From: Haliotis cracherodii
Taxonomy: Eukaryota
Reading direction: 5' to 3'
Assembly (NCBI RefSeq): GCF_022045235.1
Contig: NW_027266268.1
Location: 18,414,001 to 18,478,000, forward strand
Length of the DNA: 64,000 nt
Shown here piece after piece: positions 29,992 to 64,000 of the stretch. Both the position numbers and the translations under genes were made by a program. A model generated the notes under the pieces. It was not told the DNA's origin. It did no database searches and saw nothing but the letters and a program-made list of their open reading frames with translations. The first letter of the stretch is position 1, and each line of letters starts with the position of its first letter.

Positions 29992-30115
29992 GAATGATAA
30001 CATGAGTAAATACTCAATGGCTCAAACACGTATGTTGAGACGTGTGTACATCTGCATGATTACAGTGCTACTCATCATGCTCATATACAACATTTAATTA
30101 TGCCATAAAAAAATG

Positions 30116-30250
30116 CAAAGTAGACAAATGTTATGGATAACAACTTTTTTATTTTGCTTTAATAACATTCACAGCATAATAAAGAAGTTGTTATCCATGA
30201 CCGTTTGTCAACTTTGTCATCCTTCTACTTCTAAGAAATTCTCATCCAAC
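30116..30250 (+). mobile_element. Fold-back insertion with Penelope-like tail
   Basis: Inverted arms caaagtagacaaatgttatggataacaactttttta / taaagaagttgttatccatgaccgtttgtcaactttg, then tail tcatcc..acttctaa; related to 51181 and 52112. Confidence 0.6.
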
Positions 30251-32898
30251 AATTTAGAAACAAATTGTTCTTGTCAATGCTCCCCTTAAGTGTTGCCGAA
30301 CCCTAGTTTATACTGACACTTTTAGCAGTGCTTAATTTTTGTGTAAAAAAATTGACATGTGAAGAATTACCAAAATGGAATCTTAAATCCTGAAAATAAA
30401 ATCGGACCTTGCAACCAAGTGATGAAAAGAAATCTATTTGATGTGTCCAGCATAAGTTAACTTTTCAGTATCCCCGAAGAAATTTAAGGAATTATTATTC
30501 CTGTAACAGTAAACTCTTGAACAATTACCAGCATATCACAATACTGACAACTTATAAAACATACATCCTTGTCCACTAATACAAATGCAAAAATCCCATT
30601 CTCAACCTGACACAAACCTATTAAGGTTATCCTTAACACCGACATATCAATCTGTGACGCCAAGAAAAGCAAAAATCCCATTTTCTCCTACACACCAACT
30701 TATTTGAGTCAGCCTTAAAATCGACATAAATCTGTCATGCTAAAAAAGCTAAATTCCCATTCTCTACTAGACACAAACTTATTTTGTTCAGCCTTACAAC
30801 CAACAGTTGATTCCGTGATATATTTTATTGTTAACATAAGAACACAAAACATATACAGCGCATTAGCCTTGCATCAGAATGATTCATTCATTAGTATTGC
30901 ACCTGCTATCAATATCAAGTAACATGACATATACCTGCAGAGAAACTGCAAAAAGGTTTTCACAGAAAGCTTCAAAAACATATTTAGCAAGCTCCTGCTA
31001 GAAATAGCGTTGCGTTGCACTGGGCGCGCCTAGCATAACAAATGTTCATACCTGGCCATCCCACACAAATCTCCGAAAAGTCACATGACCTCCAGAGCTA
31101 AAGGCCACGAACTTGCTCCAAGTTTGAAACATTCACTTTATTTTGTCATTCTTGACATGTTGTTGTCTAATTGTTTTGAATGAAACAAGTATAAGCAGTA
31201 AATATTAACAAAGTTGGCCGTCAGTCATTCTGTCGAGTCTTGTACCGTGGGCTGCTTTTGATGCAATGCTTTGGCATGCTCCTTGCGTTTAGTGAAAATC
31301 ATAACTTGCCTAATATGAGCTTAAACTTTAACATACAAATATGAAAGCTTCCGTGTTGAAATTTATCATTAACAAGTTTTGAAATACCTTGGTAATATAT
31401 TTTCAGTAATTTTCACAATCATTGTCAGGTATTTAGCATCAACAAATGGAAACATCAGTGTTTGAAAGGTTGGGTTATGATAAGGGCCACATTGGCACTA
31501 AAAGGCTGTATAAGTCAAGAAATGAATGAAACTTTTGATTTTGTTTGGCTTCTTTTTTTACCTATAAGAACTCAAGCAATACAAGTGAGTCTCATATGTG
31601 AGCCTGTTTTCAACTGAAACCTGATTTCCCTTGGAGATGTACATAAAGACACCTCAAACACAGACAATATATTGCAGACCCCTGTGTTCCATCACAAAAC
31701 TTGCAAATCATACAAAGAAAAAAGAGAAAATTATAATTGTCGGACAACTTTCATAAGATACCTAACCTAACATAACCTTAATATTTGCCATTATATAGGA
31801 TTCTTACAGAGTACATCATTTTGACACACACCTATCACAAACATACAAGGATTTAGATGATACTCTGTCAACAGTTGGACCATGTCCGACCCACTTGTTC
31901 TGCCGTACTGTATCAAGAATCAAGCCTATTTTATTGTTCGGAAACATCTACAATACCTAGCATGAAATATTAATCAATTACACAAGTACAAATCCTATAT
32001 ACTGCTTTTTCTCATCAAAACACACATATATACTACTCAAAGGAAGTAAAGAGGACCCGATTTCTTCACATGACTAGTTAAACTGTCACGGAAATGACAG
32101 ATAATCATAGTCATGTGAAAAGAATCAGGCATTCGGTGACTTCTTTTGAGTAGTATATTTACAGAGCATGGATAATAAATGAAAATATAGGTTTACAAGG
32201 TGTAAACTAGCAGTACATTCGATGACAGTTACATGACATGGATGGTTATGGCACTTCATTTATACCTGACTCTAACTGTTAAAGATGTCACCTAAATCAT
32301 ACTTCAATTTACGATACTTAGCGAGCCATTATTGTTGTGGCGTAACACAAGTACAAATCCTCTATACTGCTTTTTCTCATCAATACACACATATATACAA
32401 CTCAAAGTAAGTAAAGAACACCCGATTTCTTCACATGACTAGTTAAACTGTCACGGAAATGACAGATAATCATAGTCATGTGAAAAGAATCAGGCATTCG
32501 ATGACTTCTTTTGAGTAGTATATTTACAGAGCATGGATAATAAATGAAAATATAGGTTGAATACAGATAATACAGCACAGCATTTATGAATATTACAAAG
32601 AAGAGTATTAGAGTAAACACTTCACATATTGATTCAGCAATTATTAATGTATTCTGATTGTTAGGATTCATGATAAGCTTGAGTAGTATGTCAGTACTAA
32701 ACAATGGGAGTATTCACATCCTGGAACAGTCTATCAGGGTCCACAATGAAGCTCGCACTTATTTATCTATGGTTTATGGGTTATTTGCCTAAAGTATGAA
32801 AAAGGAATAAATTACTTTTGACAAAAGCAAACTGGGCCGACTGTAATACAATTAGATGAAATGAAAAAGAAACATGAAAATTATCGTCGGTTGTAAGA

Positions 32899-51180: not shown

Positions 51181-51356
51181 GAAATAAGGATAAGCATTTA
51201 TGGATAAACAACTTCTTTATTACAGCACCGTTATCAAGAAAGGGACGGTGTTAGAACCTACACCGAAACGTCGCTCTTAATTGTAATAAAGAAGTTGTTT
51301 ATCCATAAATTCTTATCCTCACTTAGTACTCCAACTTCTAAATGCCTATCAAAGAA
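51181..51356 (+). mobile_element. Fold-back insertion with Penelope-like tail and hammerhead-like remnant
   Basis: About 44-bp inverted arms (51181-51224 vs about 51282-51325); internal ggtgt-loop-acacc-GAAACGTCG; AATAAA; 10-bp TSD GAATCCAACT (51171-51180, 51357-51366). Confidence 0.7.
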
Positions 51357-51711
51357 GAATCCAACTCAAGTTTAGAATGATTTGACAAGTCCACATTGCC
51401 TCGCATTGTTCTGGGCTCTGTTTGGAATGCATTTTATATTTTGTACATATGTATCTTTAAATAAGATAACTTGATTTCTGGGAATAAATGTTACGCTACA
51501 GACCCCAAACCCCCCGCCCGCCCCTCCCCAACCCGTGCGCTGTATACTCGAGGGAGCTGCATGCAGGCATAGGGAAAGTTCAAGCAATGAACGCCAATCT
51601 GCCCCATATTCATGTTCAAACATCAGCAGAATAAAAATATATTGCGGGGCAACAGAAGAGTTTTTTCTTTATATAATCGAACTTTGAAAGAACTGTTGTT
51701 ATGTTTGATTA

Positions 51712-51817: not shown

Positions 51818-52111
51818 TTTGATTATATCTACTTGACCACCTTTCATTCCTGCAACAGTTTGTAAAAGGTAATCTGTGGCTGGGACATTTATTTTTTTTT
51901 ACATTGGTTCAAAGACGACTGGGGTAAGAAACGAATTTGCAACCGAGCCCTACCATGTTTAAAATTTAGTAGATGTGTGCCGAAAAAAGCAAATTTACTG
52001 ATTTCCAAAGATGTCACCAGTTGTGCATTATGCAAAAAAAAAAATTATAGCTTAAGATACTTTCAATTAAAAATCAAACATGTGACAAAATCAACTGAGA
52101 GCTATAGTTTC

Positions 52112-52241
52112 AAAGTAGACAAAATTGATTGATAACAACTTCTTTAATACAAATATTAAAGAATATTAAAGAAGTTGTTATCCATAAATTGTGTCTACTT
52201 TGTCATCCGTCAACTCCTTAGTAATGCCTATCAAACAATTC
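52112..52241 (+). mobile_element. Fold-back insertion with Penelope-like tail
   Basis: Inverted arms aaagtagac...gataacaacttctttaata / tattaaagaagttgttatc...gtctacttt, tail taatgcctatcaaa; TSD AGCT(A/G)TAGTTTC at 52100-52111 and 52242-52253. Confidence 0.7.
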
Positions 52242-53357: not shown

Positions 53358-54089
53358 CACGTGTAACACTGAATACCAGTGGGAAGACACACATGAAGTG
53401 GGAAGCACGTGTAACACTGAATCCCAATGGGAAGACACACATGAAGTGCGACACACGTGTAACACTGAATACCAGTGGGAAGACTCACATGAAGTGGAAA
53501 GCACGTGTAACACTGAATCCCAGTGGGAAGACACACATGAAGTGCGACACACGTGTAACACTGAATCCCATTCGGAAGACACACATGAAGTGCGAAACAC
53601 GTGTAACACTGAATCCCAGTGGAAAGACATACATGAAGTGCGACACACGTGTAACACTGAATCCCAGTGGGAAGACTCACATGAAGTGCAACACACGTGT
53701 AACACTGAATCCCATTCGGAAGACACACATGAAGTGCGAAACACGTGTAACACTGAATCCCAGTGGGAAGACTCACATGAAGTGCGACACACGTGTAACA
53801 CTGAATCCCAGTGGGAAGACAAACATGAAGTGCGAAACACGTATAACACTGAATCCCAGTGGGAAGACATACATGTAGAGGGCAGCACGTGTAACACTGA
53901 ATCCCAATGGGAAGACGCACATAGTGTGGAGCACGTGTAACACTGAATCCCAATAGGGAGACACACATGTAAAGGACAGCACGTGTAACACTGAATCCTA
54001 ATGGGGAGACACACATGAAGTGGGGAAAACGTGTAACACTGAATCCCAGTGGGAAGACGCACATAGTGTGGAGCACGTGTAACACTGAA
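53358..54089. repeat. 48-bp minisatellite, about 15.3 units
   Basis: Consensus cacgtgtaacactgaatcccagtgggaagacacacatgaagtgcgaca; units start at 53358, 53406, 53454 ... 54074. Confidence 0.95.
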
Positions 54090-55711: not shown

Positions 55712-56523
55712 AGCAGTGAACATGGAAGCTAGCATGGGAAAGTGACAGCTAGGTGTGAACGTGAAACTTAGCAGAGAACGTGGCGGTTAGCAGTGTACGT
55801 GACAGTTAGCAGTGAATGTGTCAGCAGTGGACGTGACAATTAGCAGTTGACGTGGCAGTTAGCAGTGGACGTGACAGCAGTAAACGCGACTGTTAGCAGT
55901 GGACGAGACAGTTAGCAAGTGAAAGTGACAGCTAGTAGTGAACGTGAAACTTAGCAGAGAACGTGACGGTTAGCAGTGTACGTGACAGTTAGCAGTGAAT
56001 GTGTCACTTAGCAGTGGACGTGACAATTAGCAGTTGACCTGGCAGTTAGCAGTGAACGTGACAGCAGTAAACGCGACTGTTAGCAGTGGACGGGACAGTT
56101 AGCAAGTGAAAGTGACAGCTAGTAGTGAACGTGAAACTTAGCAGAGAACGTGACAGTTAGCAGTGTACGTGACAGTTAGCAGTGAATGTGTCAGTTAGCA
56201 GTGGACGTGACAGTTAGCAGTTGACGTGGCAGTTAGCATCGACCGTGACAGCAGTAAACGCGACTGTTAGCAGTGGACGAGACAGTTAGCAAGTGAACGT
56301 GTCAACTAGCAGTCAATGCGTCAGTTAGCAGTGGACGTGACAATTAGCAGTTGACGTGGCAGTTAGCATCGACCGTGACAGCAGTAAACGCGACTGTTAG
56401 CAGTGTACGGGACAGTTAGCAAGTGAACGTGTCAGCTAGCAGTGAATGTAAAACTTAGCAGACGGTTAGCAGAGGACGTGACAATTAGCAGTTGACTTGA
56501 CAGCAGTGAACGCGACATTTAGC
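55712..56523. repeat. 19-bp minisatellite (ttagcagtggacgtgacag) with an about 186-bp higher-order repeat
   Basis: About 40 degenerate monomers; the block gtgaaacttagcagagaacgtg recurs at about 55761, 55944 and 56131. Confidence 0.9.
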
Positions 56524-58949: not shown

Positions 58950-61769
58950 TTAATAGGCTTCGACCGTAGATTTACTCAAGTAAAGTTTGCCTGGGTGAAC
59001 TAACCTTAGTTTGAAATTATTTCGAAACCATGGGGCAACATTTTGTCTGAAGGTGGATGCTTTCAAGGGTCTTTGACTACAATCTGCACCGACGACCATA
59101 ACATACTGGAATAAGCGATAGCTACCCCACCGCCCCCTCTAAATAGAAACATTTACACAAGAGATTTAAGACGATGAAACAATGAATATACCCCAGACTC
59201 GATGATATATGTGTAGCCCTCTAAATCTCAGAGACTTAGCAGTGTACTTCCTGACTTACTTCACAAAGTATAAGCCTGTTTATGAATTTCTAAACACAGA
59301 ATTGGGCTATAAGAGTTCATATTACCCAACTAAACAGAAACCACTTTGATGAAATATTGTCGTAGCTAAAACACAAACGTTATGAGCAATGATCTTAAGA
59401 AGAGTTTGATATTTAACGAGAATTTCTGCTGAGAACACAACGTCAATACATCCATCAAGGAAATTAGAAACATTGCAAATTAATTCAATGCTTATCTACA
59501 AATTTTGAATAATTTGGCCAGACATATACAAACTACTCACTTACAATTTAAATTTGGAGCACCTCTTTTACAAATGATTTGATCTTACACACATTAAGGA
59601 TGAATATATTGAGAAAATGGCAATTGCTCATACCATATATACTTGGCTTCATTGTAAACTAACCAGGAAAAATGATAACGTCAGTGGGAAAATTTATGCA
59701 TATACAGAGACATAGCCAAATAATTACATCCATTTGCGCCGTACTTAAAAGACCTCACCTATAGAACGCCAATTACGTGTATGCTTGCAATCGTGCGAAT
59801 CAACGGGGGATATGTGTACCGTGGTGTGTTGAGCACTTCCGGTATAGGTCTAGACGCTGAAATTAGGCCCTTGTCTGAAACTGGGACACTGTCTCTCTGT
59901 AATAATGCTACTCATTAATACTGTTATACTGATTTAGAAGATAGCTAGGCGATACATCTCAAAGAACAATGAAGAACGGAGTGTGGTTTTGAAATTTGAT
60001 GTAAACCCGTTGTAGAGTAGATACCTCTTTATTTCAATTTGGAACCGACCGCTTTAGCGTGACGAAGTGGCCAGAGTCACCAAAAGCGGCAGAGGTCATT
60101 ACCTCGCTGGTCAGTGTAGGCTCTGTCGCCTCTGGAGGGGCAGTGTCGGGCCCAAATGGACAGTTAATACATTGTAAAGTTTACATATACTGAAAATTGG
60201 TACCAATATTTTGTCATGTATGAAGTTGTTCTTATTTGTTTCTAGCTAATGTTATTTTTTTATGTTTACGTAGTTTATTGCGTTTTTTTATTTTTATGAA
60301 CGTTACAATTTGTATGCAAACGATATACCTTCGTTGGTGTTCCCATCTCATCCATTGACATGTCATCATCAAACCAGTCAGGGTTAACCTCTTGGATGTC
60401 AAAATCGTCGCCAAAAACATCCGTAAGCGAATGATCTAACGATGGGTTATCGGCAGTCATCTTCGATGGATCGATATGTAGGCTGTCGATGTATACATAC
60501 GCACGATAGTTTGGTCAAATGGCTTGATATATTTAAAGGGGGTTTCCGTGGCAAAAAGGAAACCTCTTTTTAACCAATCAGAATCAAGCATTCTTCAATG
60601 TCATGGTAGAATAGAAGACAAACCAGTATTCAATCATGACGTCACTTAGTGGAATAAGGGTCTCTGAAATCCTCAAAGTGAGGAACAGCTAACTGCATTC
60701 CAGTCCCCCCAAAACTCCCGCTATCAGCAGGGGTCCTATTGCCAGCTTCACCAGTGTGTCACAACTGATTAATGACCACAAGCTATTCTGTAGCAGACGG
60801 ACATGTATGTGAGTCCAGAAAATAATTGTCTTCTTTTAAAATATTGATATTTGGTTATTTTAAACTACTTTCGAAACATTTAAATGTTCTGCAGATTAAA
60901 AAAAAGATATTGGTCAACTTGTAGACAACCCATTTAAATTTAAATTTTTTGTGCGTAACATAATGGCCTTATTAATGCTTTCATAAGCAGGCAAGACATA
61001 TTGCAAAGTATAACTCTTTTGCCATGAAACATTTATCTAGTCAGTTGTGTACGAAAATATCAAAAGTACAGTAGACATTGATGAATAATTAAAACAAATG
61101 TTCATAATTAACAAATCAAGTGGGTTTTTTACATGAAGCAGAAACAGTATTTACTAACTGAATTCAACATTTGACATAATGCACTTTACAGAGAGAGTTT
61201 TATTCCAAATAGGACATTTGTTACTTTGTACTTATTTATGTTTTAAATACTCTTTGCCATCAAAGTTAGAAGAAATGGGGTTGACTATGGTATTTACATG
61301 AAAGGAAAACCAAGATGAAACTATTTCTATATAGTTTGTTTTAACTGAACTTCTCACATCTACATGAATGTCACCAGAAGACCACGTGCACCAATTGTAG
61401 TACTAGGCAGTAGCATGATGTCCATTGCACCTGCAGGTTTATGAACACGCTTATAGCTCTTGAAAGATATTTCTTAAACCCTAGTAATTTTTGGAGTTGA
61501 GTCCCATCTGGGACAAAAATGGAAGTTTGACAAATGGTACTCACAAGCTTCGTGTACCACTCTGACAAGTGTATATTGGCACGGGTACAACTTTGCAATA
61601 TGTTCGCCACTTATTAAACCCACTAATTATAAAGTTTTAAATTTTACCCATCATATTATTCTCAAAAAGGTTTGAGGAACCATTTTACATTGCTACGTTA
61701 GATTTTGAGGAGGTTATTGAGGCATATAATTTAATTATCCTTTTAATAATCTGAAGTGGCAGTCAAACA

Positions 61770-62368
61770 TAACAAATGTTATATTTGGGATAACAGTTTC
61801 TTTGCAAAGTACAGTTTCTCCAGGATTCAAACCCACACTGCCAGAGTGAGGCACCAATCGCCAGCACACAAAGTCAGCGATCTAACCCACTCAGCCACCG
61901 AGGCTTCCACAAAAATGAAAGTCCGACAACTGGTAGTCTAGATCACGAACTTTGTGTACCCATCTGTCAAGTGTAAATTGGCACTGCTCCCATGGCCGAA
62001 AGCTATGAACACACAATGCCATTTAGAAAGTGGTCAAATGTAACAAATGTTATATTTGGGATAACACTTTCTTTGCAAAGTACAGATTCTCGTACTTTTT
62101 CGGGTTGAGTCCCGTCCAGGATTCGAACCCACACTGCCAGAGTGAGGCACCTAATGGCCAGCACACAAAGTCAGCGATCTAACCCATTCAGCCACCGAGC
62201 CTTAAACAAAAATGAAAGTCAGACAACTGGCCTTGTGAGCCCTGCCAATTTACACTTTTCAGAGGTGTACACAAAGTATGTGATCTAGACTACCAGTTGA
62301 CTACCAGTTTTACCCCAAATATGATATTTGTTACATTTGAACACTTTCTAAATGGCATTGTGTGTTCA
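61770..62368 (-). mobile_element. Composite tRNA-headed retroelement: about 1.7 tandem units plus 5' inverted fragments
   Basis: Units start at 61770 and 62041. A box TGGCTGAGTGG (61897-61887), B box GGTTCGAATCC (62129-62119). Segments 62232-62299 and about 62313-62368 are inverted copies of unit parts. 13-bp TSD TGGCAGTCAAACA (61757-61769, 62369-62381). Confidence 0.75.
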
Positions 62369-64000
62369 TGGCAGTCAAACAGTTTTGAACATTATTTGTA
62401 GTGGCGAACATATTGTAAATTTGCTCCAGTATAAATCCATTTTTCAATTTTTCACTGAAAGAGCAAGTTGAACAGAATACTATTAAAACACTAGTCTGCC
62501 TCACATAATCTCAAGCTTTTTAGTTTCCTTTCTGCCTTCCCCTTACTGCGCCCTAAAACATGAAACAAGTGTAAAATTTTCTAAAAGCTGAATCTCTCAT
62601 CTCAGTGTGGCTCTTTTTCAATATATTGGCGTTATTGGTTTTTACAAAATTATATAGACTAAGGGTTAGTCTACTAACATACCTACGAGTATGAGCCTAA
62701 CCCTAAACTACCATCATTAGTAATGGCTGATGAATTGCCTAATTGGGTTTAAACCCGATATATATAAATGCTTACCACATTGAACATGATTTAAATATTG
62801 GTCAAGGGATGTCAGTTTCCAGTGAATAGACACTTTATTATAATTGTAACCTTCAAAACGTTTTTCAAAGAGTTGATTTGGTCACTGTAGTTTCACTGTT
62901 TTGTCTTGGAGTGTTATGTTTCAATCCTTGAGTGTCAAGCTGGCCCATGCCATCAGTACCCTAAAGTAAACAAACTTTGACCAGCTTGACCGTGCCTGCT
63001 TCACTGGAGCAGGGGAACAACTGATAAGATCATGGCTAAAGAGTATCAGATTCAGTGAGAGGGGGGATGCTGACAGGGAGAGTTTGGGCTTATGCCACTA
63101 AGTGGACGTCATTTCTGGAGATTCGAACACATTGGACGACGTTATTTGCGAGAGGGGAGTGTCTAGTGAATTGCTTTCCAGGGATAGAGCTGAGCAGCGC
63201 AAATAAACGCAGTGGCCGAACGATCGCCTTCCTTAGTGGGAGATATATGATAACCGGTATTGGGAGAAAAGGTGCAGATAATCGACGTGTGGATTGTTAG
63301 AATATGCGGGAAATAAAATGGACATTGCCGAGGTCGGATTCCATTGAGGGAGTCATCATTATTTAAATGAGGGTAAATATTGTTAAACCTTGTACATTTT
63401 AATCACCATCCTTAAAGAGGCTGTACATAATGTTGATATATCATATAAGAAATACATCGTGGTCGTTGTTTATCGTACAATAAAACACTGCAGGGAGAAT
63501 AAACCCTTGCTTCCCTCATGGTTTATTCTCCCTTCATTGTTTTATTGTAAGATAAACAACCCCCACTCGTCGTTTATTTATCAAATACATCTGCCCAGTG
63601 GGGATTCAGTATGCTTGTTGGGATTCGACTAAAGTGAATCTGGTGGTCGGCTGATTTGTTCTATCTTACAGACTCCAAAGCATATATTTGATAAAACAAT
63701 CACCCCCATTCCACTCTTATCCCTGTTTAGCTCAAGCAGGTTGTACTCTTCCCCTTCTCAGCCAGGACATTAAGAGACTGGCATACTCAAGGGTTCCGTC
63801 ATGAAAATATTTTTAATTAACCTTTAAATCTTTATTTCAGATATTATATGTTAGTCTATAGGCAGTGTGATGAGGCTGAAATATTACCTACTGCGGCGTA
63901 AAATAACAGTCACCCGCCAAGTAATATATATCTTAAATTAGATTTAACAAACAAACACAGTGCCGTTTCAATGACTTAGATCAAACTTGATAGGGCTGCC

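Follow-up and report, generated by a model that had tools for sequence, protein, structure and literature searches.

The insertion at 61757-62381 of the stretch of Haliotis cracherodii DNA analysed here, a window of 64,000 nt whose positions serve as coordinates throughout, raises the question of which machinery mobilises a short tRNA-headed repeat and in what form its RNA is copied. Short interspersed elements (SINEs) are generally taken to ride long interspersed elements (LINEs), and, against this expectation, the tRNA-headed unit found here, 298 nt long, shows every insertion mark of Penelope-like elements. The analysis supports the proposal of an earlier note on this DNA that a tRNA-headed element was mobilised by a Penelope-like reverse transcriptase (RT), and comparison of its ends and tail with those of known elements makes Penelope-type mobilisation of the unit highly probable. 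With less assurance, the unit is likely transcribed by RNA polymerase III (Pol III) and copied by the RT-endonuclease of a Poseidon element, probably from a circular monomer.

The 599-bp insertion bounded by target-site duplications (TSDs) that had been described at this place was found again, with the 13-mer TGGCAGTCAAACA at both flanks (61757..61769 at the 3', short-start end and 62369..62381 at the inverted, long-start end). Three copies of the surrounding carrier transposon lack the insert (L251, L256 and L266), and the 13-bp TSD is real, because the insert-free copy L256 holds a single intact 13-mer. The composition claimed for the insert, about 1.7 head-to-tail units plus two inverted 5' fragments, also agrees with what was found, namely 1.67 units, of which one measures 297 nt and the other has lost 25 nt. 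The direct arm (61770..62230, minus strand) crosses the terminator/start junction twice and ends at the short site (unit position about 168); it consists of one complete unit (61911..62207), from a predicted Pol III start at 62207 to a T5 terminator at 61915-61911, and a terminal partial unit (61770..61910, positions 1-168) with the deletion, both on the minus strand. Three features are seen in the complete unit, all on the minus strand: a tRNA-Leu-like head (62107..62201; A box 62184-62194, B box 62119-62129), a Poseidon-like 3' module (62000..62072; covariance model 22.5 bits, E 0.015 in the 64-kb window) and a 3' segment complementary to the head (61915..61976), which would form a predicted long stem and holds one side of a C-G/U-A compensatory pair. 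In the 3' module, 62065-62072 form an 8-bp stem with 62025-62032, and the short and long end sites fall near 62041 and 62005, respectively. On the plus strand follow an inverted internal fragment (62229..62299, unit positions about 212-282) and an inverted arm starting at the long site (62306..62372, about 141-207). Both promoter boxes reported earlier are present, with the qualification that neither unit has both intact: the A box is perfect at 61887-61897, in the partial unit, and the B box at 62119-62129, in the complete one. The partial unit has a variant B box at 61823-61833, and each unit carries one change in one of its two boxes. As had been noted, the insert has neither a poly(A) nor a microsatellite tail. 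The carrier transposon around the insert and the end-to-end rod fold of the unit, both treated below, are additions to the earlier description.

The non-coding unit belongs to a large family: a 25-mer taken from it matches the 1.18-Gb genome exactly at 1,473 places (0 for the control). The main sample, unselected for length, was drawn from the first 100 listed matches of this 25-mer, all on one contig, which gave 82 loci after neighbours were merged and three carrier-borne matches dropped; 26 further loci were chosen by tandem likeness and are therefore biased to long copies. Unit numbering begins at the predicted Pol III start. Nearly all direct arms end at one of two internal sites, which lie about 35 nt from each other: 45 at the short site (about 168-171) and 31 at the long site (about 203-206), with only six ending elsewhere. 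The unit junction is crossed in 46/82 copies, a segment of at least one unit is present in 30 and an inverted 5' piece in 48. Thus, the tandem and inverted structure recurs among genomic copies and is not a one-off rearrangement, and with 76/82 copies ending at the two internal sites the other copies are not monomers with a LINE tail. Where both ends of a two-armed copy could be classed, a long arm is paired with a short arm in 38 of 42 cases (P = 6e-8). TSDs of at least 9 bp, mostly 10-13 bp, abut both ends in 32/82 loci, compared with 6 of 2,000 mismatched pairs. A LINE-derived 3' end, a poly(A) or simple-repeat tail and 3'-end priming were not found in this family, the copies of which end internally and tailless. 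In addition, sequencing runs of at least four organisms contain words of the unit.

This anatomy is that of Poseidon, a class of Penelope-like elements. The comparison standard was a Poseidon pseudo-long terminal repeat (pLTR) end in the same window (51181..51358, plus strand), a fold-back insertion with a minimal hammerhead remnant, a polyA signal and a tail; copies of its family show the same long and short arm pattern as the unit family, and several of them lie directly behind RT-domain open frames. Poseidon TSDs in this genome measure 10-13 bp in 8 of 11 scored cases. A one-sided tail of 30-40 bp has been described as a hallmark of Penelope-like elements (PMC8557442, as far as its available parts go), and the available parts of PMC11167929 report, for an anole Poseidon enzyme in vitro, cleavage of both strands and initiation of reverse transcription at two internal sites corresponding to the tail seen in the genome, and state that insertion does not need hammerhead cleavage. 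Four Poseidon subfamilies of this genome have in common an 8-bp stem followed by ATGCC. The unit stem AGAAAGTG/CACTTTCT corresponds to Poseidon AGAAGTTG/CAACTTCT with two compensatory pairs, and in both groups the short end falls inside the stem loop and the long end about 20 nt past it.

The earlier note had drawn a parallel between the tail of the unit and the fold-back insertion at 51181, and here the outcome is mixed: a modest but real similarity to Poseidon tails was found, while the shared hairpin-CCGAAA match is not general, and it was rejected since that G is confined to carrier-borne copies and absent from all 25 aligned free units. The tail similarity to Penelope-like elements is significant both by shuffles and by a covariance model made without the unit. 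In local alignments with 1,000 shuffles, subfamily B tails (n = 3) gave P < 0.001, C and D tails (n = 7) 0.003-0.033, and tails of subfamily A, to which the insertion at 51181 belongs, 0.037, 0.04 and 0.216 (n = 3); the best alignment starts at unit position 136 for 13/13 Poseidon tails. Moreover, the covariance model, built from nine Poseidon tails, scored 15-24 bits in 14/14 unit loci, with a background of at most 14. This weak but significant 3' similarity points to a class, Poseidon, as the putative partner and to no named family.

Other Penelope-like material was met during these searches. The GIY-YIG matches (30 of 36 examined) belong mostly to a hammerhead-bearing family at TA repeats, which has no tail in common with the unit. 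A second family of Penelope-like elements, seen downstream of the open frame at L067, L073 and L087, inserts at TA microsatellites and has a hammerhead core that looks canonical. A pattern of a hammerhead core before the tail gave 14 matches with one internal unit sequence, and these were set aside as apparent carrier copies. In the window, further Poseidon-type pLTR ends occur at 52089-52240, 30092-30254, 4953-5024 (minus strand) and 23226-23294 (minus strand); two of them are fold-backs, and at least two look like subfamilies outside the open-frame loci sampled. At about 1700-1800 of L040, a Poseidon end is inserted beside a fragment resembling a reverse transcriptase, presumably of the Naiad type judging from its motif.

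The window insert itself lies in a non-autonomous DNA transposon (60643..63104, 2,462 bp) that ends in CAC...GTG and has terminal inverted repeats of 10 bp. The genome holds at least 26 copies of this carrier; most are flanked by a 4-bp TSD, and the copy in the window by one of 5 bp. On account of its CAC...GTG ends, short terminal inverted repeats and 4-bp TSD, we take the carrier to be Chapaev-like. A search of the genome with the 625-bp region returned about ten near-identical matches of almost full length (L002-L012) that have about 2.4 kb of flank in common and, therefore, are carrier copies and not new insertions. The window insert is one old insertion, multiplied passively afterwards by its carrier. 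The carrier also holds an older, head-deleted insertion of the unit family (61476..61584, minus strand), whose second piece (61180-61227) is separated from it by an inversion; this 297-bp inversion relative to most carrier copies (61180-61476), which L002 has as well, splits the older insertion. The carrier took up two unit-family insertions and went on transposing, and copies without the younger insert persist. A head-less sister family was considered and rejected, as the head-less join is confined to the carrier (26 of 41 matches).

The suggestion that the head derives from a tRNA was upheld by alignment to the tRNA-Leu(CAG) of this genome, with a score of 62 against a shuffled maximum of 55 and a 14-nt gain; two other Leu tRNA genes scored 54 and 57 (shuffled 55 and 52). 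The intron-bearing tRNA-Leu(CAA) was rejected as a source of the head, its alignment being no better than those of shuffles (52, shuffled 55), and processing by tRNA splicing enzymes is accordingly unsupported. Between units stand a run of four to six T, a 6-nt leader and the tRNA-like head, an arrangement expected where a Pol III terminator directly adjoins a start site, and the boxes, the leader and the T run point to putative Pol III transcription of the unit. The tRNA-Leu genes themselves form long tandem arrays at 27.84-27.88 Mb of C3 and 74.41-74.49 Mb of C23, with about 45 and 50 genes among the matches listed, and six intron-bearing tRNA-Leu(CAA) genes lie outside these two arrays.

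The predicted RNA is strongly folded. A young monomer cut at the predicted start gives a fold z of -6.2 (-3.3 for the antisense strand), and the window copy (61909-62205) gives -4.8; judged by linear folding energy, the start rotation does not stand out. In the predicted rod, the first bases pair with those just before the U run, and both ends meet. The long stem holds 15 G-U and 1 A-C pairs (P = 0.0005), which argues that this strand is under selection as RNA. At pair 67/246, 38 loci have U-A, 21 C-G, 5 U-G and 2 C-A, and the switch between C-G and U-A follows the two main subfamilies. The statement that the element has no recognisable ribozyme also stands, as Rfam scans returned no ribozyme family and the pattern search found no hammerhead core on either strand of the unit. 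Rfam microRNA matches were rejected as fold-back artefacts of inverted arms.

From these features, a route can be proposed. Pol III would start 6 nt before the tRNA-like head and stop at the T4-6 run, yielding an RNA of one unit, the 3' 60 nt of which are predicted to pair with the head (with one compensatory pair in support), so that the 5' end would meet the U tail. A host ligase might then join the RNA ends without a ribozyme. Judging from homology and insertion anatomy, the Poseidon protein would bind the conserved stem and cut the target strands about 12 bp apart, and cDNA primed from each cut at two internal sites would give a short and a long arm in head-to-head orientation. The cDNA, whose course is seen in the anatomy of the copies, would pass the terminator/start junction and often stall soon after one lap. 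Since copying starts inside its RNA, the Poseidon enzyme must recover the sequence downstream, and a cDNA that runs through the junction would restore the 3' part, which is lost when a linear monomer is primed internally. Some arrays above two units show the pattern of local duplication and would have grown later in this way.

The junctions and stops bear on the form of the template. With priming inside a linear monomer, positions 205-298 would be lost from the copy; more than half of the copies nevertheless cross the junction, which argues that the template was continuous there. The length of the pure T run is the same within 18/18 multi-junction loci, lengths of 4, 5 and 6 recur across subfamilies, and the length varies inside each subfamily. 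Among 53 young loci, units diverge by 2.8% within insertions and by 5.6% between them. The stop rate per nucleotide rises from 0.0044 in the first lap to 0.0135 in the second, for both start sites (76 arms, P = 1e-5), and at positions 70-165 there were 23 stops in 5316 nt on the first pass and 21 in 1353 on the second. Such a rise would be expected if an RT without RNase H ran into the cDNA that it had made itself once the first lap was complete. Nor do 5' ends accumulate at the start site: 13 stops lie within 10 nt of the junction, with 9.9 expected (P = 0.2), and this reading was rejected.

Several observations weigh against the circular template or against its Pol III origin. In six more loci, missed by the T-run pattern, a point change or an insertion distinguishes the junctions from one another. 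The internal units of L022 differ at 0/298 sites, a local duplication, and the mosaic patterns of L013, L017, L018, L030 and L176 are also local duplications; such duplication, evident in the longest arrays, likewise makes junctions agree. The second-lap rise in stops is 2.2-fold in young copies (P = 0.04; 1.8-fold weighted) and 4-fold in old ones, and later loss of units by recombination accounts for part of it. A three-arm test at 16 loci, with 4, 5 and 0 shared changes, does not separate circle from multimer. A Pol III transcript has a 5'-triphosphate end that would require processing before ligation. ARAGORN and Rfam do not call the unit head a tRNA, and the absence of an internal T4 in the unit is not significant (P = 0.18). 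The covariation is essentially one subfamily event with other support one-sided, and four pairs changed on both sides compare with 2.2 in shuffles, a value reached by 60 of 500. As for the partner, blastn found no autonomous element with a closely matching tail in the loci searched that are related to Penelope-like elements. Independently of the template question, the whole-unit duplications after insertion (L022, L141, L013, L017, L018, L030 and L176) resemble an early step from dispersed element to satellite.

The alternative that survives best, and to which we give a distinctly lower though still appreciable chance, keeps the Penelope-type mobilisation and replaces the circle by a linear multimer, read through by Pol III past T4-5 or by Pol II from locally duplicated tandem sources. 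The local duplications just described suit it, as do the frequency of T4 junctions (25/77) and the four changes common to the two first-pass arms in the three-arm comparison; moreover, in the available parts of PMC8557442, Chlamys non-autonomous elements insert head-to-tail with no circle reported. Against it, the unit boundary falls together with a predicted terminator, a predicted start and the point where the long stem closes, the T run is uniform within insertions and variable within each subfamily, the second-pass stop rate is higher at positions 70-165, and the first-pass arms are no more alike than are first and second passes. A linear monomer from whose 5' end the RT jumps to its own or another 3' U tail, aided by the terminal stem, is improbable. 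Template jumping is reportedly known for non-LTR reverse transcriptases, the predicted fold brings both ends together, and a few junctions have an extra A or short additions; however, the lack of a pile-up at the start site speaks against it, and the 18/18 loci with agreeing junctions rule out frequent jumps between molecules, leaving clean jumps within one molecule. That the family is an ordinary LINE-mobilised SINE whose copies underwent local duplication and inversion afterwards, or that it carries an unrecognised ribozyme, is very improbable indeed, for although a tRNA-like head and local duplications accord with the former and Rfam covers described ribozymes only, the two fixed internal 3' ends, the complementarity of long and short arms, the lack of a simple-repeat tail and the Poseidon-like stem speak against a LINE route that the end statistics already contradict, and no hammerhead core lies on either strand. 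The circular monomer remains the template that we favour.

Read data are thin. Three raw small-RNA runs of 21.6, 18.3 and 17.0 million reads contain 1, 39 and 4 unit reads, respectively. At about 1790-1816 of L021, 29 antisense small-RNA reads with one start site and U as the first base were seen in one of the three runs; they are possibly PIWI-interacting RNAs against the unit. In three runs presumed to be RNA, contigs cover the unit, and those of one run bridge the junction; unit depth in these contigs, relative to neighbouring repeats, is no higher than in a genome-sized run, and depth cannot rank expression. Elsewhere in the window are two minisatellites, one at 53358-54089 with 15 copies of a 48-bp unit and one at 55712-56461 with 40 copies of a 19-bp unit and a 187-bp higher order.

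In the literature searched, which covered few subscription journals and neither Repbase nor Dfam, no ribozyme-free, Pol III-headed rider of Penelope-like elements was found described, and within that literature the unit is an undescribed variant, a tRNA-headed, ribozyme-free Poseidon rider, probably copied from a circle. Whether it stands for a class of ribozyme-free circular-RNA retroelements, in which a host-ligated Pol III RNA whose start meets its terminator forms a viroid-sized circle that is copied by a Penelope-type RT, we regard as an even question. If so, Pol III ends would stand in for the retrozyme hammerhead, and circular Pol III RNA made without a ribozyme would add a new source of circular RNA in animals. 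The unit RNA has predictable ends and only 298 nt, by which a circle, a jump and read-through should be readily distinguishable.

Among known systems, animal non-LTR retrozymes (PMC7229834; bioRxiv 10.64898/2026.07.22.740005, both in their available parts) are close in form: they are non-coding, highly self-paired units of 170-400 nt that occur as dimers to multimers, and the unit is likewise short, tandem and highly self-paired. Dependence on Penelope-like elements has been proposed for them, as it is for the unit. However, their circular RNA intermediate has been shown, while that of the unit is put forward from its junctions, and they are defined by a type I hammerhead per unit, for which the searches made here gave no match. 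Neither 'Pol III' nor 'polymerase III' occurs in the available text of PMC7229834, in contrast to the predicted Pol III start and terminator that form the ends of this unit. The schistosome elements Sm-alpha and Sj-alpha (PMC2770079) are similarly SINE-like, with tRNA-derived members and high copy number; they differ in having a hammerhead ribozyme, and the available parts of that source mention no Penelope partner or two-ended anatomy.

Chlamys MRC1 (PMC8557442) is likewise a non-coding rider of Penelope-like elements, with pLTRs, head-to-tail copies and 3' similarity to its partner. It differs in being algal, and the parts of the paper at hand mention no tRNA head or Pol III promoter; unlike in MRC1, the 3' part common to the 298-nt unit and its partner is only a stem of about 55 nt. 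A butterfly preprint (10.1101/596502) mentions short non-autonomous Penelope elements, in its available portion without detail. With Poseidon and Penelope themselves, as described in the accessible parts of PMC11167929 and PMC8557442, the unit has in common partial tandems, an adjacent inverted copy, two internal initiation sites, a one-ended 30-40-bp tail and AT-rich targets; it differs from them in lacking an RT or endonuclease open frame, a hammerhead remnant and an AATAAA ahead of the stem.

The tRNA-derived SINEs, including the mollusc MESC and LP (PMC4758252, in part), have the same kind of tRNA-like head with A and B boxes and dispersed, TSD-flanked copies; in contrast to these, the unit has no LINE-derived 3' end and no simple-repeat tail, and it is circularly permuted and two-armed. 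Finally, the amphibian repeats PolIII/TAN, OAX, Rana/polIII and Hy/polIII are, in the available parts of PMC10702118, tandem units of about 200-360 nt where sized, most with a tRNA-related part and with no confirmed matching SINE. They differ in forming long arrays and in having, in that text, no known mobilising partner. These orphan tRNA-related tandem repeats are, by analogy, candidates for the same route as the unit, and, if the route holds, it could underlie both the pseudo-LTR tandems of Penelope elements and such amphibian satellites.

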